64,000 bases of DNA from a virus (taxonomy: Duplodnaviria; Caudoviricetes). Made by a program: the position numbers and the translations under genes. Positions 4,455 through 58,832 of this stretch are shown here, one piece after another. The notes below the pieces were generated by a model that was not told the DNA's origin, did not search any database, and worked only from the letters and a program-made list of their open reading frames with translations. The DNA is taken from IMG/VR virus record IMGVR_UViG_3300016744_000001; one strand, 5' to 3'. The stretch's first letter is position 1. The number at the start of each line of letters is the position of its first letter.

Positions 4455-4456
4455 CG

Positions 4457-4509: not shown

Positions 4510-4541
4510 CCAATCTCCTAATAAACTCAAAGGAGTCTATC

Positions 4542-5293: not shown

Positions 5294-5402
5294 AATTCCA
5301 ACCCGCCAATCGGTTTAATATATAGTAATCGTCACGCATCGTATGGCTAGTTTTATGTTAATATCTACATCATTTACAAACACCCACGGAACGGAGGGCA
5401 AC

Positions 5403-7421: not shown

Positions 7422-7443
7422 TCTTTTCCCCACGAGAGAAAAT

Positions 7444-8289: not shown

Positions 8290-8298
8290 GGAGGGACC

Positions 8299-9015: not shown

Positions 9016-9024
9016 GAGTAAAGC

Positions 9025-23381: not shown

Positions 23382-23403
23382 AACGCGAAGGAGCTTCGCA
23401 ATG
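23382..23403 (+). promoter_or_regulatory. RBS-containing hairpin, identical to 22761-22782
   Basis: 22-nt exact repeat ending in the start codon of nadV. Confidence 0.75.
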
Positions 23404-37736: not shown

Positions 37737-40283
37737 CTACAACTCATTTATTTTTGTGTACAGGTTGATTTCCTGTGGAAGCTGGATGTTGTCTTTCTTC
37801 AAACAGACAACATCCTTGTACAAGAACCCAGAGTACAAGGTAGGATCATGATAGATCATCCACAACTGCGGAGCATATTGCGAATCCATGTATCCATTCA
37901 GCCATTCCAAAAGAGTTTGTTTGTGACGTGGATCAAATCCATCATCACACTCATCGAAGAACATCGGGAAATCATTCCCGTTAGCAGCGAATACCAATGC
38001 TGGGTAAAACGCAAAGTTGATTGCTGCTTGTTGTGACTTGCTCAAGCGACTGATTGGTCCGGGTTGTTTGTTATTGCACCGAGCCATGAAGTCACAGCTC
38101 ACATCGTCATGTTCTTTCAGTAACTCAAGCTGGATTGGGTACGTCCAGATCTTGTTAAGAATGAAGTTGACGTTCTCAAGGATGGCATTGATGAACTGCA
38201 ACGTGTGATGATGAGGCATACCGGATTCAGGGTTTAATCCGATCTCAAGATAGTTGTAGATCTTCTGTCGCTTCTCAATCGTTTCGATGAGAGAAGTGAT
38301 CTCCTCAGTGTACCGTGCCCGAAGAGTTTCTTGTTCTTTGAGCTGATTGGTCAGGGTGTAGATCTGGTTATCCAATTCCTGCTTCTGTTCTGTGAATGAT
38401 GGCAGCACACAAGTTTGCAAGTACTGGATATACTCATCAAGCATGACGTACTGATGATGGCTAGCTACGTTCTTGAGTAAACGTTCCCCAGCTTCATACA
38501 GCTTCTTATACCGTTCCCCAAACTGGATTTTCTCATTGATATCCTGACAAAGGGTGTGCAGCATAATCGCATCCACCTGACACTGTTGGAGTTGTGCAAG
38601 TTTCTCTTGATAGAGCTTCTTGAGTATCTCCATCGCTGGTGTCTGAACTTTCTTGAGAGCATCAATTGTTGACTGAGCTTGTTGAATCTCTTTCTCCAAT
38701 TCAACTTTTTCTCGAATAAACTGCTGTGCCTGAATGGTCATGTGACACTGATGCAACCAGTGATTCAAATCACCATTCAAGATTTTCAGTAGATCTCGTT
38801 CAGTGTACTGCCAAACAGTTCCCGATAATAACTGGAACACCTGTTCAATTGTGCTTAACTGTTGCTTCAGGATGCCGAGCATATCAAACATTTTGTTTGA
38901 GACTCGTTCAACTTTCTGAAGTTGTTTTGATTGTTGTTCAATCTCCACTTTCAGGTTCTTCGCTTTAACTTCAAGTTTTTTACGTTGCGACCCAAAGTGT
39001 ACAGCGTAATCACAGGTTTTACAATTGCTAAGGATTTCCGTCGGACCATTCAGCAATTGTTTTAGCTCTTCTTCAATCTGAAATAGCTGATCGTCGGCTA
39101 TCCGCATCCGTTCTTTGTGATGTTGCCAACGATTTTGCAATTGGTTATACTTGTAGTTGACTCGATTGCATCGATCCGTGGGATACCAAACTCGATGAAG
39201 TTGAGCGTTCTCACCAGTAAACAAATCGTACAATCGTTCTTGTACCTGCTGATGTCTTGAAACCTGTGAGTCGGGAATGGTTGGAAACTGAAAGAACTCC
39301 TTGATCTCATCGAGGCGTTTCAACTTGACGGAAATCAAGTCAATACAGTCCTTCTGCTCATTGTCTTGGACTGTGAACATTGAAGGATCATACTGCTGCA
39401 GCTCTGACTGAATCTTTTCAAATGACTCCCGTGTGTTTTTCAACTGCTCTTCAAACTGGCTACGTTGAGCAACCAACGCGGTCATCTGGTTCTCAAACTC
39501 GTCTACTTCAAATCGCATCGGAGCTGTGGCAAGAATATGTTGCACCCGCTTACGATATTTTACGGCTTTCTCAACCGTCACTTCTTCATGTTCAATCGTC
39601 AGACGTTCATCTTGATATTCCTTGATTCGACTATTGAGCAGAAAGATTTCATTCCCAAGATCCAGCTGCTGCTGACTTAAGATCGTGGACTTTTCCATCA
39701 TGTCAGCGATGATCTCTTTAGAGAGTAATTTCTCTTCAACTGTCTGCTTTCTGGTGTACAACAACTGAAGATTACTCTTAGCTGTTCGCAGTTCAGACTT
39801 TGCTTGTTTGTGCAATTGGACAATAAAGTCTGGTACGGATGGACTCATACTCAGTAGTAACTGCTTTCGATCAGCAACCGACATGTTAGTTACCTGATAC
39901 CGACAATGTGTCAGGTCGTCAATCAACTGAGTATAACCAAGGTGTTGAGCACACAAGTCAATTTGGGTGTTGGTTAACCCATTGACGTTCAACTCAGCAC
40001 CATTCTTGCAGAATGAATGTTTCCCCTGCTTCTTTTCAAAGCTTGACGTGATAACGTATTCTTCACCGTCATGCAAGATCGTTAGCTTCTTGTAACCACC
40101 GGTATGGTAATCACTCTTAGTTGCTGGAAGAGGAGTGATTTGTGCAATCAGTTTTGATTTACCTGAGCCATTTGTACCGATAACAATCTGTACCTGACTC
40201 ATTGCCTCTATCTGTATTGATCGAATGTCTCCAACGACATCCAACCATTTCAATCCTTTTATTTCAACTTTCGTAACGTACAT
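37737..40283 (-). CDS. sbcC: SbcC/Rad50-like SMC ATPase (phiKZ-type)
   Basis: Walker A GTNGSGKS, long coiled coil with central CKTC zinc hook, signature LSKSQ, Walker B FFDECD. Confidence 0.88.
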   Translation of the reverse strand: MYVTKVEIKGLKWLDVVGDIRSIQIEAMSQVQIVIGTNGSGKSKLIAQITPLPATKSDYHTGGYKKLTILHDGEEYVITSSFEKKQGKHSFCKNGAELNVNGLTNTQIDLCAQHLGYTQLIDDLTHCRYQVTNMSVADRKQLLLSMSPSVPDFIVQLHKQAKSELRTAKSNLQLLYTRKQTVEEKLLSKEIIADMMEKSTILSQQQLDLGNEIFLLNSRIKEYQDERLTIEHEEVTVEKAVKYRKRVQHILATAPMRFEVDEFENQMTALVAQRSQFEEQLKNTRESFEKIQSELQQYDPSMFTVQDNEQKDCIDLISVKLKRLDEIKEFFQFPTIPDSQVSRHQQVQERLYDLFTGENAQLHRVWYPTDRCNRVNYKYNQLQNRWQHHKERMRIADDQLFQIEEELKQLLNGPTEILSNCKTCDYAVHFGSQRKKLEVKAKNLKVEIEQQSKQLQKVERVSNKMFDMLGILKQQLSTIEQVFQLLSGTVWQYTERDLLKILNGDLNHWLHQCHMTIQAQQFIREKVELEKEIQQAQSTIDALKKVQTPAMEILKKLYQEKLAQLQQCQVDAIMLHTLCQDINEKIQFGERYKKLYEAGERLLKNVASHHQYVMLDEYIQYLQTCVLPSFTEQKQELDNQIYTLTNQLKEQETLRARYTEEITSLIETIEKRQKIYNYLEIGLNPESGMPHHHTLQFINAILENVNFILNKIWTYPIQLELLKEHDDVSCDFMARCNNKQPGPISRLSKSQQAAINFAFYPALVFAANGNDFPMFFDECDDGFDPRHKQTLLEWLNGYMDSQYAPQLWMIYHDPTLYSGFLYKDVVCLKKDNIQLPQEINLYTKINEL

Positions 40284-40971: not shown

Positions 40972-41508
40972 ATGAACGAACTTATCATCAAAATCACAAT
41001 TGTGTCAAAACCACTGGCTTACTGGCAAACAAATGATCCAGTGATCCCATTTGGTCAAGCGGCGCATGTTGTTGAAAACGCCATGAGTCAGGTTCGCATT
41101 GGTGATGGGGTCGCCAAATGGAGTGCCCTTCCTGATAAGAACATTGACATGAGCGTAGCTCCTCACCACGGCACACATGACACAAGTGGCACTGATCCAA
41201 TCAGTATCCACCTGAGTCAAGTCAGTGACTTCACTGCACAACATGGCTCAATCGCAGCTTCAACTACTGTGGTTGGGCACATCCAAGTTGCCAGTGATGC
41301 TGACATCGCTACTGGTACAGAAACCGGCAAAGCTGTCAACCCAAAACAGTTGAAGACAGCTTTGGACGCTCTTTCATTGGTTGCCATCCAAGCCACTGCA
41401 CCGGAAAAGAAAACTGTGTTGTGGGTAAATACTACCGACTCAACGATCAACTACTGGAACGGGTCGGCTTGGGTAACCACAGTTGGGCGTTTTGCTGACG
41501 TGACCTAA
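40972..41508 (+). CDS. Short tail-fibre-like protein
   Basis: N-terminal W..NDPVI..G......VRIGDGVAKWSALP (Mtd/hyaluronidase-N-like); HHGTH...G.D; ASTTVVGHIQVA...G....AVNPKQLK fibre repeat; YWNGSAW. Confidence 0.75.
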   Translation: MNELIIKITIVSKPLAYWQTNDPVIPFGQAAHVVENAMSQVRIGDGVAKWSALPDKNIDMSVAPHHGTHDTSGTDPISIHLSQVSDFTAQHGSIAASTTVVGHIQVASDADIATGTETGKAVNPKQLKTALDALSLVAIQATAPEKKTVLWVNTTDSTINYWNGSAWVTTVGRFADVT

Positions 41509-41519
41509 AGGAGTTTGAA

Positions 41520-41789
41520 ATGGCCGTTAATGAAACGATTACTCAAACTACCTTTACTGGGTTCAGTCGATTCCCTAAGTTTGTGCACATTCAAGAACTG
41601 AAAACTGCGCTTACTCAACTGGATGCGTACAGTAAGAATGTTGTTAACTGCAACTGTGCCCCAAGTAACTGTTGCCAGGCAAACTGTTCTTATACCTGTC
41701 AATCCTGTCAAAGTTGTCAATGGTGTCAAACTTGTCAAAGTCAATGCCAAAATTGTTGGAACTGCAATTGTGGTGATGACGGATCTTAG
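41520..41789 (+). CDS. Cys-rich protein A (candidate radical SAM substrate)
   Basis: AAGGAG RBS; 14 Cys in the C-terminal half, (CQx)n repeats, NCNC at both ends of the core. Confidence 0.85.
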   Translation: MAVNETITQTTFTGFSRFPKFVHIQELKTALTQLDAYSKNVVNCNCAPSNCCQANCSYTCQSCQSCQWCQTCQSQCQNCWNCNCGDDGS

Positions 41790-41797
41790 GAGGTAGC

Positions 41798-42112
41798 ATG
41801 TCTTTACCAACCAGACAAGAAATCATTGACATGACTACTCAATTTGAGCAAATCCGTGACAGTGTAACCTACAAATCTGGTCAAACAAAACCAGTAATCG
41901 ACAAGCATACTCACACCGTAACTTTCCCGGAGAGGGTGACACTTACTTCGCTGCAAGCTGGGGTGAAACAACTTGAGAGTTATTACTCTCAAAACTGCAA
42001 TTGTTTAACCAACCCACAATGTTGCCAGACTTGTCAAATCTGTCAGGTGTGTCAAAGCTGTCAAAGTTGTGAAAGTGGTTGGTGTGAAAATAACTGTTTG
42101 CAGTGCAACTGA
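41798..42112 (+). CDS. Cys-rich protein B (paralogue of A)
   Basis: AGGAGG RBS; 12 Cys; QLESYYSQNCNC..CCQTCQICQVCQSCQSC. Confidence 0.85.
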   Translation: MSLPTRQEIIDMTTQFEQIRDSVTYKSGQTKPVIDKHTHTVTFPERVTLTSLQAGVKQLESYYSQNCNCLTNPQCCQTCQICQVCQSCQSCESGWCENNCLQCN

Positions 42113-42124
42113 TAGGAGACCATC

Positions 42125-42964
42125 ATGCTCAAGATATACTCCCTGGCTGTTGATCAGACAAGAAAGTTCTCAATTGATCTGGTGGACAACCAACTTTCTG
42201 TAAAAGTCATTGATGACTCAACCAACGGGATCGTCAATGAGTGCTCTCCCACCTTGATCGAGTCTTACCACTCTTATGGACTGTTTAGTGGCAACTTCGT
42301 TGAACGAGTGCCCAGCACAATTTTCAAAGAGTTGGATCAGGTGATCCATGCCGGATCACTCAAACTCGTGAACTATCTCCGCCTTGGTTATGGCCCACGG
42401 GAATCGTTCATGGGGATTGCTGACTTTTGGTCACACAACCCACTTGGTCAAGTTGACACTGGTTTGTACACCGACCAAGAAAAGGACATTGTGATCACTG
42501 TCTTTGGTGGTTGGAATCCGGATAGTATCGTCAATAGCTCGATCCCATACGAAGTCCGCACCCCACTGCCGGCAGACACATTTCACTCGCATAAATCCAA
42601 TGCCCGTTGGACGCTTTGGGATCGATATGCGGTCGGAATCAATGGCTTGGAATACTGGGCAGACCAAAACGGTATTCGAAAAGACACCAATGCAGAAACA
42701 ATTGCAATTCCAACAAAGGAATGTTTGGAGTTTAATCTCCAGAAGTATACCTCTGATTGGTCAACAAAGCTTGAACGCCCAGTCGACTGTAATGAACTAA
42801 CGCTTGAAACCACTTGTGGTCTTTTGCGCACAACCAGAGTCCCGTTGGTTGAAGGCAAAGCAAAATTCCACCTGTACCCGTTTGGTCATCTTGGTGAATT
42901 CAAAATCAAGGTTGGCTGGCGATGGTACCCTGTTTGGGATGAATACAAGTTCACGTTAATTTAA
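42125..42964 (+). CDS. Accessory protein of cassette 1 (C-terminal beta domain shared with 48481..49482)
   Basis: LETTCGLLRTTRVPLVEGKAKF...G...IKVGWRW. Confidence 0.75.
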   Translation: MLKIYSLAVDQTRKFSIDLVDNQLSVKVIDDSTNGIVNECSPTLIESYHSYGLFSGNFVERVPSTIFKELDQVIHAGSLKLVNYLRLGYGPRESFMGIADFWSHNPLGQVDTGLYTDQEKDIVITVFGGWNPDSIVNSSIPYEVRTPLPADTFHSHKSNARWTLWDRYAVGINGLEYWADQNGIRKDTNAETIAIPTKECLEFNLQKYTSDWSTKLERPVDCNELTLETTCGLLRTTRVPLVEGKAKFHLYPFGHLGEFKIKVGWRWYPVWDEYKFTLI

Positions 42965-43018
42965 ATATAGTAGTGAGAAGGTGTTTGCCTTCTCACTACT
43001 GCAAATAAGGATTAAACC

Positions 43019-44098
43019 ATGAACAATCTGCTTTCTATCCCTGCTGTCAGAACTATCTTTCTGATGCTTGGACCTAAATGTAATCTGTCTTGCAAGTATT
43101 GCTTGCAGTCTTTAGATACGACTCCGGTTAAGCTCAACCCCGACATTTTTCCATTCATTGAAAAGATTGCTGAAGCAAACCCAGAAACACCAGTACACCT
43201 CCAATTTTTTGGAGGTGAGCCTTTGCTTCACTGGGATTCGGTAATCAAGGAAACACTAGATCATTTCGAAGGTGTTGAGAACATCCAGTTTTCCATGATC
43301 ACCAACGGTGTTGGTCTTACTCAAGAAATCGTGGATACCTGCAACCAGCGAAATGTTAGCATCTGTGTGTCGTGGGATGGGCCAAACACACAAGAACTTC
43401 GTGGGTTTGATGTTCTGAATTCTGAAAAACACCGAATATTGTTGTTGCAAGTTATTCGGCTTAGTTTGTCAGCTGTCGTCACATCCGAGTCATATCCAGT
43501 AGAGATCATCGATGCTGCGATGCCATTCGTTCTTGATTACCATGCTGCTACTGGAAATCACTGCTCGATCAACTTTGACACCATCTTTCAATCGAAAGAC
43601 CCCGAGCTTGAAAAGCTTGATCTCTCAAGATTGTACAACGATAATCAGATCTTGTGTGCCGAACTGAAAAAACGGTTGCTGAACCAAGAACACAACCCGT
43701 ACTACGCTCATCACGCTGATCAGATCTTTGGGATGTTGACCAAGTCAATTAAAAACGACACCGACTTCTTGTACAGTACCTGTGCATGTGAAAATGGGTA
43801 TGCTGTGCTCAACCTTGGAATTGACGGTACACTGTATCAGTGTCACAATGTGGCCACCGTACTCGGGAATATTTACTCCGGTTACCTTCCGTATATGAAG
43901 GCGGTGATCCGCAATGATCCTACGAAAACTAGGGTGGTTGAGACTTGTCAGCATTGCCCAGTTGTTGCAATGTGCAAAGGGGGATGCATGCTTGTTCCAG
44001 CTGACCAAATCAACGGTAATTACTGTGGAATCAAACGAGCGATGTTTCTTCCGTTCATTGAGCTTCTATTGTCCTTTGACAAGGATACTCCAAAATGA
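43019..44098 (+). CDS. Radical SAM/SPASM maturase 1a
   Basis: CNLSCKYC, FFGGEPLL, ITNG, SWDG; SPASM C...GTLYQCH...CQHCPVVAMCKGGC...YC. Confidence 0.92.
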   Translation: MNNLLSIPAVRTIFLMLGPKCNLSCKYCLQSLDTTPVKLNPDIFPFIEKIAEANPETPVHLQFFGGEPLLHWDSVIKETLDHFEGVENIQFSMITNGVGLTQEIVDTCNQRNVSICVSWDGPNTQELRGFDVLNSEKHRILLLQVIRLSLSAVVTSESYPVEIIDAAMPFVLDYHAATGNHCSINFDTIFQSKDPELEKLDLSRLYNDNQILCAELKKRLLNQEHNPYYAHHADQIFGMLTKSIKNDTDFLYSTCACENGYAVLNLGIDGTLYQCHNVATVLGNIYSGYLPYMKAVIRNDPTKTRVVETCQHCPVVAMCKGGCMLVPADQINGNYCGIKRAMFLPFIELLLSFDKDTPK

Positions 44099-45057
44099 AA
44101 TCACTCACCATCCATTTAGGTAGCCAGTGCAACGCCGCTTGTGAGTACTGTCACTGTGAAAAAAATGGTCATCTTGAACCCGATGCTGAAGCATTAGCCG
44201 TCAGGATTAATGAACTTCCAGAACATTCCAGAGTGAAGTTTCTTGGTGGTGAACCATTGGTCTACTGGGACACAATCGAATACCTCCAAAAGAAGTTTCG
44301 TTTGAAGTATCAGTGGTCAGTTGGTACAAATGGTATCCTTCTTGACAAGTATCTTGACAAGTTGAAACGATTTCAAACTCAGATTTGTATCTCTTATGAC
44401 GGCAGCAGCTCTCTGCGAAAAATGCCGGTCAACTGGGATATCCTTTACCAGCTATCTGAATTGTGGTTGAGTTATACGGTGATGAACACCAATTGTGATG
44501 TGCTCAAAGAGATGACATTCATCGATGAGATCTCTAAAGAATACGTCACTCCTATCTGGTGCATTCCTCACTTCATGCATGCCTTGGTCCAAGAGCATCA
44601 ACCCTTTGTCATTACCGATCAGCAGCTTGATCAACTGATCGCTGATTGTCAGCTGGCAATTGACTACTTTGTTGATGCCGCCCCAACAAGTGTTCCAATG
44701 TCCAAGTACTTTGGAATCTATTTGTGGATTGCATCAAAAGTTCACCAGAACAATTTTTCCTTTGGTGAGACGACTTGCTTTAACAACAATCTGATCAAGA
44801 TCAACAATCAAGGGCAGTTGGTTTCTTGTTTGTACGATCAAAGCTTACACCTTTCTGACATCAATTGGTTTGATGTTCAAAAAGCTGAACTCCGCGAGCA
44901 TCAACCAAAATGTCAAACCTGTTTGGTGTATCGCTACTGTGGAGCAGCTTGTTACAAAAGCAAGTTCTCGGATCATGAATGTCAATTTTACAAAACCATG
45001 ATTCCATGGTTCGTGAGGAAGTATGGCCATAGACCACTTATTCGTCTTTGCCGATAG
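44095..45057 (+). CDS. Radical SAM/SPASM maturase 1b
   Basis: CNAACEYC, FLGGEPL, TNG, SYDG; CQTCLVYRYCGAAC...EC; ATGA overlap with 1a. Confidence 0.92.
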   Translation: MKSLTIHLGSQCNAACEYCHCEKNGHLEPDAEALAVRINELPEHSRVKFLGGEPLVYWDTIEYLQKKFRLKYQWSVGTNGILLDKYLDKLKRFQTQICISYDGSSSLRKMPVNWDILYQLSELWLSYTVMNTNCDVLKEMTFIDEISKEYVTPIWCIPHFMHALVQEHQPFVITDQQLDQLIADCQLAIDYFVDAAPTSVPMSKYFGIYLWIASKVHQNNFSFGETTCFNNNLIKINNQGQLVSCLYDQSLHLSDINWFDVQKAELREHQPKCQTCLVYRYCGAACYKSKFSDHECQFYKTMIPWFVRKYGHRPLIRLCR

Positions 45058-45685
45058 CATCCAACTCCCGTGTAAACTGATCGTTGAGCGGGCCAATGGT
45101 GTCTATCAGTTCAAGTTGGACTTCTTGGATCAGGTAGTGGAGGTATCTCCAGAACTTCTAGAACAAAACTCTACTGTTGGTATCATGTACAACGCTGAGC
45201 TTCAAAAGCTTTACCCGTTGTACAACCTTCGAGAAGTCGCCAGCTTCATCGGTTGCAACTCAAAGCAACTGTGCCCTCAACTTGGGCAGAATTGCTTTGC
45301 TCAGATTGACAAGAAGTCTGATGAAGTCACGTTCATTAAGATCTTCTTGCCTCAGAGCCAACTGACGTGGCAGTCTGCCACGATTGACCGGAACACTCTG
45401 ACGATGGTTCAACTTGATCAGCTCACAGCAATTGATCAAGAATTCCAGCATGTCTGGGAAATCATTGATGTTTCGGTGATCAGTGATCGTCTTCTCGTCT
45501 CTATTGATTTCCATCGGAAGTATCCTGAACCAGTATTCCTTTTCTACGGTGGATTGTCACAAGAGTTGCATGAAGGGGTGCAACAGCTCTCGTTCCCATT
45601 CTTGAAAGGGAACAACCTTCACATCCGGTTTGACCGTACCAGGTTTTCGACTTGGCAGTATTCTGTGGACAGCAATATTAAATGA
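45023..45685 (+). CDS. Accessory protein of cassette 1
   Basis: GAGGA RBS, overlaps the end of radical SAM 1b. Confidence 0.7.
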   Translation: MAIDHLFVFADSIQLPCKLIVERANGVYQFKLDFLDQVVEVSPELLEQNSTVGIMYNAELQKLYPLYNLREVASFIGCNSKQLCPQLGQNCFAQIDKKSDEVTFIKIFLPQSQLTWQSATIDRNTLTMVQLDQLTAIDQEFQHVWEIIDVSVISDRLLVSIDFHRKYPEPVFLFYGGLSQELHEGVQQLSFPFLKGNNLHIRFDRTRFSTWQYSVDSNIK

Positions 45686-45768
45686 ACAGCACCTTTCCTA
45701 CTCTCCTTTCTTAAGGAGAGTATGGATGGTAGTATGCATTACAGATATCTTTCTTAAGGAGAAAGTCC

Positions 45769-46530
45769 ATGGCTGATATGACTGCAACAATCCCTGTCAA
45801 ACCAACAGTGTTTCCGGAACCATTTGCCAATTCTGGCGATACCACACAGCTCCCTCAGACAACCACCACTCCCGGCAAAGCATCGTTCGATGCTGGTTTC
45901 CCTGAGGAATGCTCCAAACCTCTGGCGGATGGTGGTCTCCCTCCCAGTCGTATTGACTTCAACTCAATTTTCAAATTGATCACGGAGTGGTTGCATTACT
46001 TCCAGTCTGGTGGCCAGGTCACCTACAATCAGGACCTGAACTATATCACTCCTGCTCTGGTGTTCTACAACGGCACAGGATACGAATGCACTGCCGACAA
46101 TGGTCCTGCAGTTGCTGGCATCGGTATCAAAATTCCTGGTGCTGTGGGCAGTGAAACTTTCTGGAAGCCTGCTTCAGGTGAGCTGAACATCAACCACTTT
46201 GGCAACAATGCGAACTCATACCTTTTGACAGGTTACTACTATATTGAGGACGCATACGCCACGCTGAACTTCCCAGTCATCGGTTCTGGTGGGTTCTTGA
46301 CCGTGTCACGTCGTGACAACAATCTGGATCAGGCATTCGTACTGAGGACAGACGCAACCAAACTGTATCGCCGCAATTCGACAGACGGTGGTACCACTTG
46401 GTCAACTTGGACAAAGGTCGTCCACACGACTGACATTCGTGGCGACGCCTACTGCCAGCGTTTCATCACCATGTCTGATCCAGACCATGCGATCGGTAAT
46501 GACAACGACCTGTGGATTGTGTACCGGTAA
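45769..46530 (+). CDS. Tail fibre protein (prophage-myovirus-type N-terminus, knob-like C-terminus)
   Basis: PEPFANSGD, GKASFDAGFP..CSKPLADGGLPP...DFN N-terminus; TGYY....NFP....G.L.V....Q.......Y.R.....WSTW. Confidence 0.8.
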   Translation: MADMTATIPVKPTVFPEPFANSGDTTQLPQTTTTPGKASFDAGFPEECSKPLADGGLPPSRIDFNSIFKLITEWLHYFQSGGQVTYNQDLNYITPALVFYNGTGYECTADNGPAVAGIGIKIPGAVGSETFWKPASGELNINHFGNNANSYLLTGYYYIEDAYATLNFPVIGSGGFLTVSRRDNNLDQAFVLRTDATKLYRRNSTDGGTTWSTWTKVVHTTDIRGDAYCQRFITMSDPDHAIGNDNDLWIVYR

Positions 46531-46553
46531 TTTTTACCCCCAAGGAAATCATC

Positions 46554-47612
46554 ATGACAGACTGCGTACTTTACTGGAATGGTTCTGGTGGCAAAGTTGT
46601 CTCACAGGGTATCCTGTTTGAGATCAGCACCAAACCTGACCTGGGTTTCGAGTACGAAACCCTGAGCTACGAACCATCCATGAACTTTGCCCACTACACG
46701 TTGGCAACCAAGGATGAAAACAACCTCAGCACCATCCTGAAAGTTGATCTTTCAGAAGCTGAACTCGTCAAGGTTCAGAATTTCTGCAATGTCTTCATTG
46801 ATACTGCAGACTACGAAGTGGCCGCCTACAACACCGATCGAGTGTTCGTTGGTGTGATCATGAAGTCCTTGGCGATTGAAAAGAACCTGAAGTACTCAAT
46901 CACCGAGCGGCCGCCCATGCCGATGGCGAAGTTCAACGAAACCACCGGCAAATGGGAACCCATCTTTGTGGCCTTCAAAGAAGATGGTTTTCCGCTGTTC
47001 AACGTCACCAAACTGTCAGACGACATGGTGATGTTCTTCACTGAAACCGAATGGAAGGCACTGCCCACTCAGCCTTCTTACCGGTACTCACTGGATTTTG
47101 CGACATTGACTTGGATGGACAAACGTGATCTTGTCCGTGTCAAGAATGATGCCCTCATGACACTGCGGGTGTACTACGAACATCAGGACATTCGTGCGAA
47201 TGCTGGTTTCCGCACACCCAAGGAAATGATCCAGTGGAACATCCAGTACAATGAAGCCAAGGCGTTTACCGCCGATTCCAAGGTCAGCACTCCTTTCCTT
47301 GACGGCTTCCTGTCCAAGAATCCTCAGAGCACCAAAGAAGAACTGTGCGCTAAGATTCTTGAAGACTACACTGACGAAGCCCTGTTTGTGGCCGGCGCCG
47401 ATCATGGTGAGATGTACAACTACGTCTACCGGATCAAATCTGCCACCACCAATGTGGCAGTTGACGCCATCGTTGACGAGGTCAATGCCAAACTGCAGAA
47501 GTACAAAGTGGTCAACTACAACCAGGCGTATCCTTCTGCTCCGGCCAAAGAAGGCGAAGAAACTCTTGTAGTTGTCGGAGGTACCATCAACCATGGCGTC
47601 GGCAGTCTATAA
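46554..47612 (+). CDS. Tail-fibre assembly/chaperone-like protein
   Basis: P.P....FNETTGKW and EMIQWNIQYNEAKAF..D....TPFL......KEELCAKIL motifs typical of fibre-associated chaperones. Confidence 0.6.
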   Translation: MTDCVLYWNGSGGKVVSQGILFEISTKPDLGFEYETLSYEPSMNFAHYTLATKDENNLSTILKVDLSEAELVKVQNFCNVFIDTADYEVAAYNTDRVFVGVIMKSLAIEKNLKYSITERPPMPMAKFNETTGKWEPIFVAFKEDGFPLFNVTKLSDDMVMFFTETEWKALPTQPSYRYSLDFATLTWMDKRDLVRVKNDALMTLRVYYEHQDIRANAGFRTPKEMIQWNIQYNEAKAFTADSKVSTPFLDGFLSKNPQSTKEELCAKILEDYTDEALFVAGADHGEMYNYVYRIKSATTNVAVDAIVDEVNAKLQKYKVVNYNQAYPSAPAKEGEETLVVVGGTINHGVGSL

Positions 47613-47940
47613 AGTACAGGTGCGGGCCCAAGGTGCTTATCGTGGGTGTGTGCCTTTTGTGAAGGTTGCTGGTAAATACATCAATCCCAAAGCTATTTAC
47701 GTGAAAGTGAATGGTCTTTGGCGCGCAGCTTATGACAACTTTTACTGGTCGTACTACTGGATGACTGGTAACTGGTCTGGTTGTGCATGCGTCGGCAACT
47801 GCAGTAGCCGAGCAGTTTGGTGCAATTACTATCCGGAAATGCTCACCATGCCTGACAGCTATTGCTCGACGTCTGGTGACAAGCCTGCCACTGTTCAGTG
47901 GTGCAATTGTAATTGTGCGTGTGCCTGCTGTTGTGACTGA
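47593..47940 (+). CDS. Cys-rich protein C with TSP1-like segment and CNCNCACACCCD tail
   Basis: GGAGG RBS before ATG 47593; YVKVNGLWR fibre-tip-like motif; 13 Cys. Confidence 0.8.
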   Translation: MASAVYKVQVRAQGAYRGCVPFVKVAGKYINPKAIYVKVNGLWRAAYDNFYWSYYWMTGNWSGCACVGNCSSRAVWCNYYPEMLTMPDSYCSTSGDKPATVQWCNCNCACACCCD

Positions 47941-47989
47941 GGTTGCGACTAATTAGCAATTCAATTGCCAGTAAATAACAGACCTTTAT

Positions 47990-48023
47990 ACAGAGTACCC
48001 ACCTTTTAAGGTGGGTACTCTGT
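47990..48023 (+). terminator. Intergenic hairpin
   Basis: ACAGAGTACCCACCTT / AAGGTGGGTACTCTGT 16-bp stem. Confidence 0.65.
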
Positions 48024-48086
48024 CAATGATTAATCTTGTTATCTATAAAGATGGTACCAATCTAAAACAATTTCATGGAGTGCAAC

Positions 48087-48488
48087 ATGAGTAACGAAGA
48101 TACCAAATCTGAGGCAGAACGTTTTTCTCTTCCCAGTCAGTTTGTGATGGAAGAGGATACTGAACAGTATCGTCTCAAAACCGATAAAGTGTACACCTAT
48201 CATCGTGATGGTGAACTGGTGATCCAAATCGACTTCAGTGACTTTGCCATCAACAAAGACGACATCGACCGCCTGGGTGAAGAAGCCGTAATCAACCAAA
48301 TCCAGCAGGATGCGCTGGTGTTGGCGATGAAGCTGACTGGTGGGCTGAAACCAGGAGATGTTGAAAAACTGAACAATGAAGAAGTACGGGTTCTTACCGA
48401 AACTGAGATCGAAGACGCCACTGCGTTCATTGCCAGTCATCAGCAGTTCATGAGCGACCCCCAACAAACGGAGACCCCCAATGGGTAA
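48087..48488 (+). CDS. Acidic accessory protein of cassette 2
   Basis: GGAG RBS; D/E-rich; overlaps the start of 48481. Confidence 0.7.
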   Translation: MSNEDTKSEAERFSLPSQFVMEEDTEQYRLKTDKVYTYHRDGELVIQIDFSDFAINKDDIDRLGEEAVINQIQQDALVLAMKLTGGLKPGDVEKLNNEEVRVLTETEIEDATAFIASHQQFMSDPQQTETPNG

Positions 48489-49482
48489 ACCAACCTTGTT
48501 TATCATCCGGAAAGAGATGGACATCCTTCGTCCGTTTGTTATTCGAGTTACCCGTGAGGAAGACCTTCTTCAGGTAGAGTACCTTTACCGCACCATGGTC
48601 AAAGGTGAGCAGAAGGACTTCTTGGTTCTCGGGTATCGGCTTACTCGTGAGTTCCTTGAGAAGCGCAATGACTGGAAAGACAACACCCAATTTGGCATGC
48701 ATCTCAAGGACTATGACATCTCTTACATGCACAGCTGTGTCAGGATCATCCAACAGTTCGTTGACTCTGGATTGTCGTATGCCGATGTCTGCGCTGCAGT
48801 CAGTGCTCACATGCCCAGATTCAACACAATCAACCGCAACGGATACCTGATCAACATCAGTGCCGCCAGCTACATCGGTAAAGTTTCTTCCGTGGAAGCT
48901 CATGTGTTGATCCCTGCTTACCGGGTGATCAACTGGGTACAGAAACTGAAGAGCACCAAGTTCACGGAATGCTGTGTCAACTTGGCAGCTGACCCTGCTT
49001 GCACCGTAGAAGTGATCACTGGTGATCGGACGCAGGACATCTGCAACAGCAGTGAGATCTACAAAGATCTCATCCACAAGGATGAAGCGATCAAACAGCA
49101 GGTTTGGCGTCCCAAACTCAAACTCACCCAGCAGCCAAAACGGTATCCGATCGTCAACAACTTCCCCAGTCGCACTCACTCACTGTTGCGCACGGATCTG
49201 GTTGTCGAAGATTTCACCGGCGTGGTCTTTCCTGATGAATCAGTCACATTTGACGTGCAATTGGTTCGGGAGTGGTACGGTGATGAAATCCACTCCCCGG
49301 CTGAAATCTATCTGGAATGCGTCAATGGTTACTTGCCGAAGACACGTATCCGGTTGGATGAAAACGGTCATGGTACTTTCCGGTTCATTTCCCTTGGTCT
49401 TGAGAAGGGTGACATCATGAAGGTCAAAGCTGGTTTCAGGTTCATGACAAACTCTGCTGAAGCGGATATCGCAATCATCTAA
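48481..49482 (+). CDS. Accessory protein of cassette 2 (C-terminal domain shared with 42125..42964)
   Basis: LECVNGYLPKTRIRLDENGHGTF...G...MKVKAGFRF. Confidence 0.75.
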   Translation: MGKPTLFIIRKEMDILRPFVIRVTREEDLLQVEYLYRTMVKGEQKDFLVLGYRLTREFLEKRNDWKDNTQFGMHLKDYDISYMHSCVRIIQQFVDSGLSYADVCAAVSAHMPRFNTINRNGYLINISAASYIGKVSSVEAHVLIPAYRVINWVQKLKSTKFTECCVNLAADPACTVEVITGDRTQDICNSSEIYKDLIHKDEAIKQQVWRPKLKLTQQPKRYPIVNNFPSRTHSLLRTDLVVEDFTGVVFPDESVTFDVQLVREWYGDEIHSPAEIYLECVNGYLPKTRIRLDENGHGTFRFISLGLEKGDIMKVKAGFRFMTNSAEADIAII

Positions 49483-49493
49483 CAGTCATTCTC

Positions 49494-49523
49494 ACAGAGT
49501 CAGGGAGTACTCCCTGACTCTGT
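49494..49523. terminator. Perfect 30-bp palindrome
   Basis: ACAGAGTCAGGGAGTACTCCCTGACTCTGT. Confidence 0.6.
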
Positions 49524-49580
49524 ATATCTACTGCATTATTTATGCATCGGTTACACCAAAAATAAACCTGAGGAACAGAT

Positions 49581-50819
49581 ATGTTAAGTCTAGTCTTCAA
49601 TGACAAATCGCTTGAGAAATTCAAGATCGACTTCAATCCGTACACCATGAAGTTTGGTCAGGATGTCCAAGATATCAAACCGCTGATGACTGTGCAAACA
49701 AAGATCCACAGCAAGTCACCAAAAGTGCTCAAAATCATGCTTGGTGACGCTTGCAACTTTCGCTGTAAGTATTGCCGTCAAGATCATCATGGTCGGAAAG
49801 ATTCTTTCAATCCGGCACGATTAGCAGCATTCATGCAGATGCTCACGAACAACCTGTCACTGCATCAGCTTGAACGTGTGGAGTACTGGGGCGGTGAACC
49901 CCTCTTGTATTGGGATGAAATCCGGTACTTGATGGACAGAATCGAGACACACGTAAAACGGCCCGTAACGCACCATATAACGACGAATGGCAGTTTGCTG
50001 ACCAATGACATCGTTTCAGACATAAAGTCGCTTAAATACCTCTTTAAGCTCTCTCACGATGGTCCTGGGCAAAGTCTTCGCACGGCAGATCCATTGAAGC
50101 TGCATGAAAGCAAGATCATGGATCTGTACACCCACATGAAGACGGCTGAAGGAAGCAAGTTTCACATCAACTCGGTGCTGACCAAATTGTGTCCGTCACC
50201 TTTCACGATTGTGGATTTCTTCCGAAAGAGGTTTGACAACGATGTCTCGATCATGAAGATCGAACCAGTCATCCCGTACAATGATGATGCGTTGTCTTAC
50301 GCGATCAATCCAGCAGACATGCCGAAGTTCTCATTCCAGATCGCCAACGACATCATCCGTGGGGATATCGTCAGAAGTGTTGTGGAATACCAACAGCTGT
50401 GGGATGCTTTCGTTTTGATGGAAGCTGCCCCTGACTACATCTACAACATGACTGAAGCCAAATGTCATGGGTCACAGTTGATGACTATCTGCACTGATCT
50501 CGATGGTAACCTCACCCCTTGTCAGGTGTATGACAACTACACTCCTGATCAAGTCATCGGCCATCTGACCAAGCTGGATGACATCAAGGAAGAACTTCCT
50601 TATGCTCCGATCAATCGCGCCGGTCGTTGCACCAACTGCCCTGTGATCTCACTGTGCCGTGGGGTATGCCCACACATTGCTCCTGGTCAGCATGCTGACA
50701 CCAACTGTCTGATGCGGTACAACACGTACCTGGGTATCCTTACTGCGTTCCTGTTTTTCAAGACTCAGAAATTCTTGATTCAAGTTAACGGGGACTATTA
50801 CCACAACCAACAAAGGTAG
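49581..50819 (+). CDS. Radical SAM/SPASM maturase 2a
   Basis: CNFRCKYC, YWGGEPLLYW, TTNGSL, LSHDGPGQ; CTNCPVISLCRGVC...C. Confidence 0.92.
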   Translation: MLSLVFNDKSLEKFKIDFNPYTMKFGQDVQDIKPLMTVQTKIHSKSPKVLKIMLGDACNFRCKYCRQDHHGRKDSFNPARLAAFMQMLTNNLSLHQLERVEYWGGEPLLYWDEIRYLMDRIETHVKRPVTHHITTNGSLLTNDIVSDIKSLKYLFKLSHDGPGQSLRTADPLKLHESKIMDLYTHMKTAEGSKFHINSVLTKLCPSPFTIVDFFRKRFDNDVSIMKIEPVIPYNDDALSYAINPADMPKFSFQIANDIIRGDIVRSVVEYQQLWDAFVLMEAAPDYIYNMTEAKCHGSQLMTICTDLDGNLTPCQVYDNYTPDQVIGHLTKLDDIKEELPYAPINRAGRCTNCPVISLCRGVCPHIAPGQHADTNCLMRYNTYLGILTAFLFFKTQKFLIQVNGDYYHNQQR

Positions 50820-50824
50820 TTCAC

Positions 50825-52156
50825 ATGCAACTGATTACCTTAAAGAATGGTACTCAGCTTAAGTTCGATCCAGTCAGCGTTAAGTTCTTCCAGATGGACG
50901 GTACTCCGATCACGGTCAGGAATGATATCAATGCTGATCAAGATTGTTCCAAAGTGAGTAACCAACTGAACATGCACATGCATGCGAACACAAGATTCGA
51001 CAACCCGAAAAACTTGCGTATCGTTCTTGGGCACGCCTGCAACTTCAAGTGCAAATACTGCAGTCAGAGTCACTCACCTCTTGACCTGCCCCCGGCCAAA
51101 CAAGTTAGCAAGTTCATGATGGACTTGTTCAAAACGACTAATCTTTCCCAGTTGAAGGTTATCCAATTCTGGGGTGGTGAACCACTGCTGTACTGGCCAA
51201 CCATCTGCTTCTTTATGGATGCATTCCGGGAGATCAATCCCAACATTGGGTTCTCTATCGTGACCAATGGTAGTTTGATCACCAAGCGCATGGGCGATGT
51301 CATTCTGAACGACGACCAGTTTGGTTTCATCCTTTCTCATGACGGTCCGGGTCAACATCTCCGTGGGATTGATCCATTGGCTCTGGGTTCTCGTACCAGA
51401 GACATCCTGTTACAGTTGGCAAAGGAAAAGGTGCCCAACCAACACCGGAAGTACTTGAATGAAGGAAGGAACTTTGCAGTCAATCCGGTGATCACCTCAG
51501 CTGTGGGTTCACTCACATCCTTGGTAGAATGGTACGACAAAGCCTTTGAAGGTTGCGAAGTACCAATCGCTGAATCAATTCCTGTGATCCCAATCCAAGA
51601 CGACACGGCACAATACGCGCTGCATCATGACGATCTACCCAAGTATACAGCGATGATCTACCACGATCTACTGAAGCTTGGGTTGCATCGTTTTGACAAC
51701 TACAAGATGCTGTATGATCTCTTCCTTCAGAAGTGGTCACTTCCGCAATTCTTGGTGAACCCCAAAAAAGCTTTGTGCTTCACCACCGATCCATACATGC
51801 TGACATTGGACCTGAATGGTAACATCTTACCATGCCAGACTTTTGCAGCTTCGGATCATCTTGGTAATGGGGAACCAGCATCTTACAGTAACCTGCTGGA
51901 TTTTGGTGACAAGACTGATCCCACCACAACCGGACCAGACATCAAAATGCCAACAGTTCATGGTTATGGTAGCCGAGGTAGTAAGTGTAGTAACTGCCCA
52001 GTAGTTTCTTTCTGCATGGGTGGTTGTCCTTACCTTGTTGGTGCACAACACGACATTGACTGCCGTGTCAAGTACCATCATTTCCTTGGACTACTGTTTA
52101 CCTTTGTCACAATGGCCTTTGGTGAAAAGGTCCTCAAAATCGAAACCCTCGATTGA
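50825..52156 (+). CDS. Radical SAM/SPASM maturase 2b
   Basis: CNFKCKYC, FWGGEPLLYW, VTNGSL, LSHDGPGQ; CSNCPVVSFCMGGC...C. Confidence 0.92.
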   Translation: MQLITLKNGTQLKFDPVSVKFFQMDGTPITVRNDINADQDCSKVSNQLNMHMHANTRFDNPKNLRIVLGHACNFKCKYCSQSHSPLDLPPAKQVSKFMMDLFKTTNLSQLKVIQFWGGEPLLYWPTICFFMDAFREINPNIGFSIVTNGSLITKRMGDVILNDDQFGFILSHDGPGQHLRGIDPLALGSRTRDILLQLAKEKVPNQHRKYLNEGRNFAVNPVITSAVGSLTSLVEWYDKAFEGCEVPIAESIPVIPIQDDTAQYALHHDDLPKYTAMIYHDLLKLGLHRFDNYKMLYDLFLQKWSLPQFLVNPKKALCFTTDPYMLTLDLNGNILPCQTFAASDHLGNGEPASYSNLLDFGDKTDPTTTGPDIKMPTVHGYGSRGSKCSNCPVVSFCMGGCPYLVGAQHDIDCRVKYHHFLGLLFTFVTMAFGEKVLKIETLD

Positions 52157-52161
52157 TGACT

Positions 52162-52189
52162 ATCCCTGCTAGGCTATCCTAGCAGGGAT
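52162..52189. terminator. Hairpin between convergent genes
   Basis: ATCCCTGCTAGG / CCTAGCAGGGAT. Confidence 0.65.
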
Positions 52190-52193
52190 GTCT

Positions 52194-56228: not shown

Positions 56229-56906
56229 ATGGAAGTCATCGACCAGATCTTGGATTCTCCACTGAAGAAATTTGATTCGTACTACGTACCGATCTTAACA
56301 CAAATACGAGATTGCATCCTTGCAAACTCCACAAAACGGGCATCTCGGGATGCTGAATTTGAGACGTTGAGGAAAGCAGTGTCAATACTGCAATTGGTTC
56401 CAGCCGAGGTCATGAAGCATTGCGAATTCGTGAGGACATCAAAGAACCTGCGAATGACCATTGCTCACTCTCGAAATTTTAAAGAACATGACTCACACAC
56501 AGCAACTCCACCAACTCCAGAAGAAATCAGAGTTATTGAAGATACCATGCGGTTGATTTTCAAACTCTTCCGGACAAAGAAAGTTGATAATGTTCAACTC
56601 GAACACCCAGTGACAACATTCAGTCACAATGGTCAAGCGGTCAGAATACCGCAAGATGATTTCATCATCTACACAATCACGTTTCATGGTGGGTCAAGTC
56701 TGGTGATTAACCTTTCACCACAGCAAATACACATCAACTTTTACAACACGCTGGGTCCGATAAAAATATCCCAAGAAGTAGTGTTGTTTGATATCTTTCT
56801 GGAGCAAAACATCCTGATCTCGATCATACGACTCATGATCAATTGTTGTTTCTTTGCCGGATTTGATGATAACCCCATCATAAATCCATCTGAAAATGGA
56901 GAATGA
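56229..56906 (+). CDS. Hypothetical protein (first of five similar-sized ORFs)
   Basis: GAGGG RBS; 225 aa. Confidence 0.7.
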   Translation: MEVIDQILDSPLKKFDSYYVPILTQIRDCILANSTKRASRDAEFETLRKAVSILQLVPAEVMKHCEFVRTSKNLRMTIAHSRNFKEHDSHTATPPTPEEIRVIEDTMRLIFKLFRTKKVDNVQLEHPVTTFSHNGQAVRIPQDDFIIYTITFHGGSSLVINLSPQQIHINFYNTLGPIKISQEVVLFDIFLEQNILISIIRLMINCCFFAGFDDNPIINPSENGE

Positions 56907-56909
56907 TCA

Positions 56910-57533
56910 ATGAACCCACAGATTCAGAAGTTGCTGCATACTCAGTTTCAAGATCTGATCTTGTCTGATCTTCAGCACAACACATTTGCTGAAAAATCCC
57001 CAATAAGCCTTAACACGATGCTTGAGATGGTCAACTTCATTGATGCCACAATCGCAGTTGAAGTCCCACTGGAGCAAATCTTTGACTTGGCCGACAACGG
57101 TCTCACCAATGAAGACTTCAGTGAAAACTACACGCATCTGTGGTTGCAGCTTAACGAAGAACTTCGGGATGGTGGGCTCTCTGGATTTAATCCAGAACCA
57201 GTTAGTCGGGAACACACTCCTGCTGGTAAACTTGACCTAGCCGGCGGTGAGTTCAAGGTCCTACCTGATGGGGTTACGGCTTTTTTCCTACTTCGTAACC
57301 CCACAACCAATGACCATTACAAGTTCACGCATCGAACCTTCCAGATGTACGAAGGTAGTCAATTTGGTCAAATGACTAAATACGTTGGGACAACGAATCC
57401 CATGATCAACCTGTTTATTCAGTACTACTTCTGGAAAAGCTTAGCCGTATCTTGCCATCCTAATTTTAGTGAAAAAGGCAAGGACCATTATCGAAACCTC
57501 AAGCAGATGCTTATACTTCAGCATCTACTCTAA
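56910..57533 (+). CDS. Hypothetical protein
   Basis: 207 aa, tightly packed. Confidence 0.7.
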   Translation: MNPQIQKLLHTQFQDLILSDLQHNTFAEKSPISLNTMLEMVNFIDATIAVEVPLEQIFDLADNGLTNEDFSENYTHLWLQLNEELRDGGLSGFNPEPVSREHTPAGKLDLAGGEFKVLPDGVTAFFLLRNPTTNDHYKFTHRTFQMYEGSQFGQMTKYVGTTNPMINLFIQYYFWKSLAVSCHPNFSEKGKDHYRNLKQMLILQHLL

Positions 57534-57547
57534 TATACAAGGAGGTA

Positions 57548-58189
57548 GTGATGGCATGGACCATGACGGGGGGCCTGAAAGGACTGCCAATGGAATACAT
57601 CAGCAACCGGTATCCAATGTTTACTGCCGAATACAAACCCATACTTCCGACATGCCGTGTGCTCAAGCCAATTTTACAACAGATCACCGATCTGTTGATT
57701 GCTGACTATGATCAACCTGAAGAAGCAAGGCAACAAGAATGGGAGACCCTTTGTATTGGGATTGCTCATGCTGAAATGACCAAGTCTGAAGTTGCAAACC
57801 ATTTTAAGATTGTGGCAAGCTTAGTGCAGACTTACGGTGTGATGAAAGGTCGTGTCTCACTGGCGATTAAACTTGAAACTAGAAAAGAGCCGCAACCAAA
57901 ACCAATTGATCAAACTGTCTTTGGTGAAGCGATGTCATTTTGGGCAGGACACCCAGACGATGATGGTTTGCGAACAGTGGCAAAAAACCAAGAGGTTGAT
58001 ATTTTTCGGTACGATCATCCGAGTAAGGGCTTTCTATCAACCAACCGAGACAGTTTGATAATCATTTCATCAACGTCAGATAAACAAGTATCGATTTACG
58101 CTGACGGTGGTGTGGCAAGCTATTTTACGGTGCGCTGTACGTATTGGTTTTGTGCTTGGGTGGATAAGCAGAATACTCAAACTTCATAG
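57548..58189 (+). CDS. Hypothetical protein
   Basis: AAGGAGG RBS; 213 aa. Confidence 0.7.
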   Translation: MMAWTMTGGLKGLPMEYISNRYPMFTAEYKPILPTCRVLKPILQQITDLLIADYDQPEEARQQEWETLCIGIAHAEMTKSEVANHFKIVASLVQTYGVMKGRVSLAIKLETRKEPQPKPIDQTVFGEAMSFWAGHPDDDGLRTVAKNQEVDIFRYDHPSKGFLSTNRDSLIIISSTSDKQVSIYADGGVASYFTVRCTYWFCAWVDKQNTQTS

Positions 58190-58197
58190 GAGAAAGC

Positions 58198-58830: not shown

Positions 58831-58832
58831 TC

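Follow-up and report, generated by a model that had tools for sequence, protein, structure and literature searches.

Two related phage gene modules pair cysteine-tailed, fibre-associated proteins with radical-SAM/SPASM enzymes and may serve the enzymatic maturation of fibres

What would a phage do with four radical S-adenosylmethionine (rSAM) enzymes that lie beside fibre-type genes and short cysteine-rich proteins? The question is raised by positions 40,972 to 52,156 of a 64,000-nucleotide stretch of DNA (hereafter the window) from the Caudoviricetes record IMGVR_UViG_3300016744_000001 in IMG/VR. Two cassettes follow one another here. Each comprises a fibre-type protein (40972; 45769; genes are named by their first position), small proteins with runs of cysteine (41520 and 41798; 47593, which ends in CNCNCACACCCD), an accessory protein (42125; 48481) and a pair of rSAM enzymes with a SPASM motif (43019/44095; 49581/50825). 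We read them as two related phage modules for the enzymatic maturation of cysteine-tailed fibre proteins, probably yielding a thioether-stapled C-terminal clasp, and give this reading a probability of roughly 60%. As the same pairing occurs in many unrelated phages, virus fibres are probably modified by a chemistry so far known from peptide antibiotics.

Such enzymes and tails regularly occur together. A scan of IMG/VR with the rSAM alignment A2 as query yielded 80 loci in 43 non-redundant groups (L-numbers below denote related loci from phage or metagenome contigs, L002 being Achromobacter phage JWF); a locus search with 50825 alone as query returned no related loci. Within the fetched flanks, a same-strand open reading frame (ORF) with at least five cysteines in 20 residues was present in 31 of the 39 non-redundant viral loci with a recognizable rSAM gene. 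Of the remaining eight, five showed a run that was shorter or, next to an accessory gene on the minus strand, lay on the opposite strand, and one was a 4.5 kb fragment. At the stricter threshold of at least seven cysteines in 30 residues, a six-frame scan of the whole 64 kb window returned 41520, 41798 and 47593 and nothing outside the cassettes. The gene order Cys-tailed protein, accessory with an immunoglobulin-like (Ig-like) domain, rSAM enzyme was found in about 20 loci. In these loci, a 48481-like accessory is immediately preceded by an ORF whose last residues are ...CACACACNC, ...NCNCNCACACNC or a run of that kind, with an rSAM gene 1–3 kb beyond. In sequence comparisons, tail type tracks enzyme clade: enzymes resembling 49581 or 50825 pair with CxC runs of period 2 that lie at the very end of the protein, near relatives of 43019 (at least 250 bits) with CQx tails of period 3, and more distant ones with acidic DC-rich or CQ tails. 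This linkage spans podovirus-like, siphovirus-like, Ackermannviridae and jumbo-phage backgrounds. When 49 Cys-tailed proteins were compared with PHROGs, 17 of the 25 most-matched families were tail fibre, long tail fibre distal subunit, tail spike or baseplate wedge, two were head decoration and six had no function. The preliminary description of this DNA had expected its proposal to fail if such rSAM genes were common without Cys-rich ORFs or fibre genes. Because of the frequency of the Cys runs, the match between tail type and clade and the share of tail-type families, the loci present a different picture, and Cys-rich homologues on other contigs again adjoin rSAM genes.

Together with the fixed gene order and the frequency of the runs, fused relatives support the earlier claim that the targets are fibre-associated proteins and not exported peptides. 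In L038, L040 and L041, a single fibre protein combines a 45769-type N-terminus (E 1e-18 to 1e-23) with an end in ..YCTYCSYCSYCCHDCCQDCGDD; the accessory gene and two rSAM genes come next, and the fusion joins the separate parts of cassette 2. In L042, a 266-residue protein ending in ..NCNCNCNCDCDCGDDGGP is encoded after a central tail fibre J homologue and precedes orthologues of 42125 and 45023, which are interleaved with two rSAM genes. The CQ module also ends some family proteins of 240–340 residues; two of their N-termini match baseplate wedge subunit and virion structural PHROGs, and we read these two as LamG-like from sequence alone. Tails of the CTCNCNY type occur in loci L077 to L080. 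Among cultured phages, 50825 is closest to the rSAM enzymes of Ralstonia phage RSP15 (30% identity) and Achromobacter phage JWF (27%), each the only one of its phage and encoded next to tail-fibre genes. The RSP15 genes run from the side tail fibre ORF048 (ending in ..NTNCQCGN) through the accessory homologue ORF047 and ORF046 to the rSAM gene ORF045. In the JWF fibre gp028, a self-cleaving Hint domain comes right after NCNCDCNCNCS, and the rSAM gene lies one gene on; no accessory homologue was detected in JWF. For the Cys proteins of the window, a place in the virion is suggested through these fused relatives.

The two cassettes are related but are not duplicates of one another (Table 1). The preliminary description had seen the same architecture twice, which held for the rSAM enzymes and the C-terminal domain of the accessories; for the two fibre-like proteins, the Cys tails, 45023, 46554 and 48087, no homology between the cassettes was detectable. 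Between cassettes, rSAM identity ranges from 22 to 33%. 49581 and 50825 share 32%, 43019 shares 22–25% with these two, and 44095 diverges most. The accessories 42125 and 48481 have a common C-terminal domain of about 60–90 residues (hmmsearch E 2e-6; hhalign 94.5%, E 8e-8), of which about 56 C-terminal residues of 42125 match the profile. The tails are of two types, with CQxCQx repeats after an invariant NCNC..CCQ in cassette 1 and a terminal CNCNCACACCC run in cassette 2, and cysteine makes up 15.7% of 41520, 11.5% of 41798 and 11.3% of 47593. Particular to the window is that two tail types, each with its enzyme pair, adjoin in one jumbo phage.

Table 1. Genes and hairpins of the two cassettes (positions in the window; aa, amino acids).
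Feature	Position	Strand	Description
Short fibre-like protein	40972..41508	+	178 aa, no Cys, first gene of cassette 1
Cys-rich protein A	41520..41789	+	89 aa; N-terminal helix-like segment, NCNC..CCQ..(CQx)n tail ending NCNCGDDGS
Cys-rich protein B	41798..42112	+	104 aa; HTH motif, helix, CQxCQx tail
Accessory protein 1	42125..42964	+	279 aa, Ig-like C-terminal domain (predicted)
rSAM/SPASM enzyme 1	43019..44098	+	359 aa, without N-terminal extension; PF04055
rSAM/SPASM enzyme 2	44095..45057	+	320 aa, start overlaps 43019 stop; PF04055
Accessory protein 2	45023..45685	+	220 aa
Tail fibre protein	45769..46530	+	253 aa, first gene of cassette 2
352-aa protein	46554..47612	+	kept in L006 and L007
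Cys-tailed protein	47593..47940	+	115 aa, 13 Cys, ends ..WCNCNCACACCCD
Hairpin	47991..48022	+	13-bp stem, in the 134-nt gap (47941-48074) after 47593; read from sequence
Acidic protein	48087..48488	+	133 aa from 48087
Accessory protein	48481..49482	+	333 aa, Ig-like C-terminal domain (predicted)
rSAM/SPASM enzyme 3	49581..50819	+	412 aa, ~55-aa N-terminal extension; PF04055
rSAM/SPASM enzyme 4	50825..52156	+	443 aa, ~70-aa N-terminal extension; PF04055
Terminator-like hairpin after cassette 2	52161..52190	+	13-bp stem, 7 GC pairs, directly after 50825 stop

In cassette 1, we infer 41798 to be a likely substrate. It lies directly upstream of accessory 42125, in the same order as is conserved elsewhere, and its family alignment A1 has an invariant N-C-N-C, a CCQ and four further cysteines. 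41520 and 41798 are paralogues (39% identity, E 4e-13) of a family that comprised 123 clusters at 50% identity in a profile search of 1.84 billion proteins, most members being 90–160 residues long. Orthologues of 41520 with 49–51% identity were found in L003, L004 and L005, also within rSAM cassettes. These three loci and L037 share an order of a short protein with a 40972-type end, a 41520-type protein, a protein of about 270 residues, a 41798-type protein and three to four rSAM genes, and one rSAM enzyme per set has 39% identity to 43019 (L003, L004 and L037 among them). 40972 itself has a weak PHROG match to a tail collar fibre (phrog_910, E 2.5e-5). Its C-terminal 40 residues or so (..LWVN....NYWNGSAW..) recur in the gene before the Cys proteins of L003, L004 and L005, and the same motif ends a tail-fibre protein of L037 (8041-8817; phrog_8469, E 1e-28). 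In L042, a 42125 orthologue (E 5e-38) lies between the Cys-tailed protein and the rSAM genes, the nearest relative of 44095 was found (5385-6311, 137 bits), and the sole orthologue found for 45023 lies between the two rSAM genes (E 6e-17). For 45023, hhalign detected no relation between its family and that of the Ig-like accessories; its Atlas model, of low confidence and with beta-sandwich-like matches only, is a weak lead.

In cassette 2, the likely substrate is 47593. Its tail cysteines are all invariant in three relatives, loci with relatives of it retain the whole cassette, and its terminal CxC run resembles the ...CACACACNC ends upstream of 50825-like rSAM genes in about 20 viral loci. 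A homologue search for longer forms of 47593 returned no fused proteins, which is weak evidence. The N-terminus of 45769 (residues 11–89) matches phrog_12796 (E 3.9e-15) and four other tail-fibre PHROGs. The label 'chaperone-like', which the preliminary description gave to 46554, could not be established: PHROG matches were only to families without assigned function, and its neighbours in the Atlas are hypothetical proteins of viruses, with the tail-fibre-assembly family Caudo_TAP in a minority of members at scores below 0.9, which is a weak lead. For the acidic protein 48087, no family match was found in Pfam or PHROGs, and its conservation is limited to the close relatives L006 (91% identity) and L007 (51%). 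In these two loci (L006 816-1700; L007 2204-3127), a gene occupies the place of the 134-nt gap that follows 47593 in the window. It was considered as a further component of the system and rejected, as it encodes an HNH homing endonuclease and looks like a mobile insertion that splits cassette 2.

With regard to the enzymes, the motifs of the preliminary description (CxxxCxxC, GGEP and the SPASM cluster CxxCxxxxxCxxxC) are invariant in alignment A2, as are seven SPASM cysteines (C318, C337, C388, C391, C397, C401 and C413 in 50825 numbering). For 43019, 44095, 49581 and 50825 (in this order throughout), the Pfam model Radical_SAM PF04055 was matched with 34.7, 39.1, 35.6 and 38.2 bits against a cut-off of 29.5. 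Full-length matches to phrog_1802, annotated as nothing beyond 'radical SAM domain-containing protein', had E-values of 2.5e-39, 2e-26, 1.4e-38 and 9.1e-43. All four enzymes have the SPASM motif, and among the matches listed, the TIGR04085 SPASM cut-off was reached by 50825 only (29.2 vs 27 bits); the other three are SPASM members by motif, the TIGR04085 model not being among their 25 listed matches. The ranthipeptide maturase PapB (NF047865) ranked first among NCBIfam families for every enzyme except 44095, where it came second, but with 95.9, 46.4, 78.9 and 57.9 bits against a cut-off of 340 they are not members. Nor are they members of the SCIFF maturases CteB/ScfB (TIGR03974; 54.9, 27.8, 52.1 and 43.0 bits vs 425) or of the anaerobic sulfatase-maturating enzymes (anSME; TIGR03942; 51.7, 26.8, 51.6 and 40.8 bits vs 349). 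QhpD (TIGR03906) was the second-best NCBIfam match for 43019 (74 bits vs 453), and no NCBIfam model matched the three Cys-rich proteins at E 0.1. The closest solved structures by profile were 8VPO (E 8e-32), CteB 5WGG (3e-24), anSME 4K36-39 (5e-20), ChlB and SuiB. By these comparisons, the four enzymes belong to the peptide- and protein-modifying SPASM clade, outside every characterized family.

The accessory protein is the component that ties both tail types of the window to the RSP15 type. Its family was aligned from 17 sequences (A4). In the AlphaFold model of 48481, residues ~209–333 were matched best by the Ig-like domains of glycoside hydrolase family 2 glycosidases (Z 12.3, root-mean-square deviation 1.8 over 93 residues), followed by intimin and invasin with Z 11.1–11.7; Foldseek paired the domain with intimin D0-D1 at a probability of 1.0. 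By this model, the C-terminal domain is an Ig-like beta-sandwich, an assignment made by fold only, since no Pfam family matched 48481. The domain also occurs in RSP15 ORF047 (E 2e-10). The N-terminal part was modelled at moderate confidence as three strands and helices; folded alone, it reached a predicted local distance difference test of 59.6 and a best structural match of Z 3.0 among 48,161 chains. No Pfam match to a PqqD-like recognition element, the leader-binding winged-helix domain of three strands and three helices as known for peptides made on ribosomes and modified after translation (RiPPs), was found in enzymes or accessories. A complex prediction of 48481 with 47593 gave a score of 0.00, which bears neither way on binding.

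Some related loci carry further genes and motifs. A Hint domain is fused right after the Cys run in JWF gp028 (L002 6655-8106; CFPAGTMV) and in two CQ-family proteins, P0026 and P0063 (CVLKGSQ.., CFLEGTL..). Once this domain cleaves itself off, the protein would end exactly with the Cys run, possibly as a thioester. In L042, an ORF of 124 aa between the Cys-tailed protein and the accessory (4188-4562) appears Hint-like by eye (..VKGNILTNKGYVDV.., ..YDIGVENDDNFF..), with no Pfam match. A gene for a ThiF-like adenylating enzyme (PF00899) stands amid the rSAM genes of the CQ-type cassettes L003 (4925-5581) and L004 (4939-5607), and its product might activate a C-terminal carboxylate. Neither a ThiF-like gene nor a Hint domain is present in the window. 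In marine-type loci, one to four genes for 2-oxoglutarate-Fe(II) oxygenases (PF13759) lie between accessory and rSAM genes (L017 3760-6827, L023 5984-6817, L021 3610-4425), which suggests further oxidative tailoring. An HxH motif often stands 10–30 residues before the Cys run (L038, L040, L042, L068, L069, L073 and 41798 of the window), for example AHTHTS, GHTHIV, SHTHTS, CHKHYI and, in 41798, KHTHTV; these motifs recall the metal-binding HxH of phage fibres.

The rationale is that fibre folding takes place in the cytoplasm, whose reducing conditions leave no room for disulfides. Under the proposed mechanism, the Cys-tailed proteins would be made there late in infection, with no disulfides possible. 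The rSAM/SPASM enzyme would cleave S-adenosylmethionine to the 5'-deoxyadenosyl radical, which would take a hydrogen from a residue of the tail. A cysteine sulfur could then form a thioether to carbon, of the sactionine or ranthionine type, within one chain or between chains, and would give a covalently stapled C-terminal clasp. The accessory may hold or present the tail, or may remain bound to it, and the modified protein would enter the fibre or receptor-binding apparatus without export. PapB joins cysteine to the carbon beside a carboxylate, the C-terminal one included (PMC12373016), and this use of the C-terminal carboxylate fits tails that stop exactly at the C-terminus. More tentatively, and with appreciably less confidence than in the modification itself, the Cys run might become a covalent clasp, insensitive to redox state, by which oligomers of fibre or receptor-binding proteins are locked together; it would replace disulfides by a bond that can form in the cytoplasm, with two orthogonal versions in this phage. 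The Hint domain after the Cys run and the ThiF-like gene in relatives raise the option that the tail is ligated or cyclized through its terminal carboxylate. They hint that a free or activated C-terminus matters, which for the window is speculation.

Several observations weigh against enzymatic stapling of fibre tails. The residues between the cysteines vary widely among loci (A, N, K, T, Q, D, S), so that no clear acceptor stands out, and dense CxC runs behind HxH motifs would suit metal binding as well. The small Cys proteins of the window have no recognizable fibre domain. Since the enzyme scores lie far below the cut-offs of all characterized families, the chemistry cannot be transferred from a relative; in addition, the cassette 1 enzymes lack an N-terminal leader-binding domain, and the N-terminal part of the accessory matches no known fold. 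Finally, the neighbours of the cassettes are replication genes (SbcC, RuvC, DNA polymerase), so that the location is not that of a classical tail module; the fibre-type genes are part of the cassettes themselves.

The metal-binding aspect leads to a different explanation, in which the Cys runs are metal or Fe-S sites of a trimeric fibre needle, and the rSAM enzymes load the site or make another change, such as cysteine to formylglycine. The long-fibre tip of T4 has His-x-His iron sites, the HxH motifs named above precede many tails, and alternating CxC in a beta-strand would turn all thiols to one face. The anSME are among the closest solved relatives, and the JWF enzyme was annotated as anSME by its depositors. 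However, dedicated rSAM enzymes would be superfluous for a metal site, and yet between one and six are found in every case; the anSME motif C/S-x-P/A-x-R is absent from the tails of 41520, 41798 and 47593, the anSME scores are low as given above, and the top family matches are thioether-forming maturases. We consider this explanation rather unlikely. It is decidedly unlikely that the Cys-rich proteins are precursors of diffusible RiPPs (bacteriocin-like, signalling or host-manipulating), freed at lysis and next to fibre genes only through late co-expression. The layout of 41520 and 41798, with about 60 leader-like residues and then a Cys-rich core, and the RiPP maturase clade of the enzymes would suit such precursors, and lysis would spare the exporter. 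On the other hand, the same Cys modules end fibre-type, LamG-like and virion-structural proteins of 250–500 residues, the tail carriers match tail-fibre families, and the conserved partner is an Ig-like-domain protein, which is neither a peptidase nor an immunity gene product. In agreement with the preliminary description, Pfam and PHROG scans of 15 ORFs found no leader peptidase and no other peptidase or transporter domain, although an undetected domain is not proof of absence. The cassettes thus differ from a canonical RiPP cluster, with its leader peptidase and exporter or immunity gene, in having precursor relatives that are fused to large structural domains.

Enzymes of the rSAM type could also act on a nucleotide, a cofactor, DNA or a molecule of the host surface, with the Cys-rich proteins as unmodified structural or zinc-binding operon mates. 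There is precedent for a phage rSAM enzyme with a non-protein substrate in the thymidine hypermodification enzyme M6 gp53 (PMC8989533), weak matches to viperin-like and MoaA models were obtained, and the window has a fifth rSAM gene (15803-16774, plus strand; 323 aa; phrog_13987 E 1.4e-16, not of the phrog_1802 type), near which a six-frame scan of the window found no Cys-rich ORF. A DNA hypermodification of the M6 gp53 type was rejected for the four enzymes, as M6 gp53 is photoproduct-lyase-like and has no SPASM domain (PMC8989533). All four have the full SPASM motif typical of peptide and protein modifiers. Furthermore, the enzyme clade co-varies with the tail type across loci, and the linkage holds in all of the phage backgrounds listed above. 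We consider an action on something other than the neighbouring Cys-rich proteins quite improbable.

Stapling of fibre tails can be compared with several known rSAM/SPASM systems. The nearest analogy in logic is QhpD, which makes several Cys-to-Asp/Glu thioethers in QhpC, a subunit that is kept in a larger assembly instead of being secreted as a peptide. However, the scores are far under the cut-off of that family, and QhpD/QhpC is a bacterial, periplasmic system with a dedicated protease and exporter and no link to viruses or fibres. The anSME are likewise minimal rSAM/SPASM enzymes of similar length without a leader-binding domain, and they act on a cysteine or serine of a full-size protein; scores and target motif set the phage enzymes apart, as described. 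CteB, the second closest solved relative, and the sactipeptide maturases install thioethers on a Cys-rich peptide, but SCIFF is a 45-residue peptide with six cysteines, and CteB has an N-terminal leader-binding domain, whereas 43019 and 44095 have no extension and 49581 and 50825 have one of about 55–70 residues. PapB, also an rSAM enzyme with a SPASM domain, acts on a substrate with many regularly spaced cysteines (PapA, the freyrasin precursor) and uses the C-terminal carboxylate (PMC12373016), and the phage tails end at or near the C-terminus. In contrast, the Cys-X3-Asp motif of PapA is absent here, the spacing being CxC or CQxC, and PapA is a short secreted bacterial peptide, while the phage systems have fibre-type carriers and a conserved Ig-like accessory.

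Regarding the genomic setting, the large terminase of the window has 34–38% identity to those of the Erwinia Ea35-70 group, Xanthomonas phage Xoo-sp14, Ralstonia phages RP12/RP31 and Vibrio phage BONAISHI, and its source is a jumbo phage. The protein 41798 also turned up on a contig of 273 kb. An SbcC-like gene (minus strand, 37737-40283) lies upstream of the cassettes, and RuvC-like and DNA polymerase genes lie downstream. A megablast search of the whole region against phage records returned no match. All 14 ORFs of the preliminary description were recovered on the plus strand at the coordinates given there. Cassette genes are separated by 5–98 nt or overlap (44095/44098, 45023/45057, 47593/47612 and 48481/48488), and a Shine-Dalgarno-like sequence (AAGGAG, AGGAGG) precedes nearly all of them, the small Cys-rich ORFs included, with AAGGAG before 41520. 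Both 46554 and 47593 begin at an ATG inside a longer ORF, whose opening lies at 46512 and 47572, respectively. For the acidic protein, 48087 is the preferred start, having GGAG upstream and agreeing with the start of the L006 homologue. In a scan for promoters and terminators, the number of sites in the region was not above shuffled expectation, and the hairpin after cassette 2 is for this reason a consensus match only; the hairpin in the gap after 47593 has no T run and was therefore missed by the terminator scan.

Elsewhere in the window, five consecutive ORFs of 207–225 aa are located at 56229-59489 (plus strand), the three scanned having no PHROG match; BLAST revealed no paralogy among these similar-sized tandem ORFs or among those at 6729-9909. 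A salvage pair for nicotinamide adenine dinucleotide is encoded at 23401-26009 (plus strand), namely a nicotinamide phosphoribosyltransferase (phrog_448, E 4e-154) and a cytidyltransferase/NUDIX fusion (phrog_395, E 2e-60).

Tail fibres set the host range of phages and are the main target of phage engineering, and their known maturation involves chaperones, self-cleaving chaperone domains and metal sites. To our knowledge, the enzymatic radical cross-linking of a virion protein has not been described so far. The preliminary description knew of no characterized phage system of this type, and in our literature search, which left most subscription journals outside, no description of an rSAM modification of phage fibres was found either; in the RP12/RP31 paper, rSAM genes are merely listed under 'other genes'. 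The enzymes' chemistry is familiar from RiPPs, but no application of it to fibre proteins of a virion is known. The CQx tail family is defined here. Since the cassette 2 type is present in the cultured phages Ralstonia RSP15 and Achromobacter JWF, the idea is directly testable. If it is true, such fibres may misfold or fail when expressed without their enzymes, and the pairs of enzyme and tag would be compact means for covalent protein stapling in the cytoplasm. The widespread phage rSAM family phrog_1802 would gain a role. Under the more tentative reading, in which the tail is ligated or cyclized, virion proteins would undergo a post-translational modification of a novel class, which has an enzyme, an accessory and a substrate code to itself. 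RiPP-type chemistry would then reach from secreted peptides to the structural proteins of viruses.

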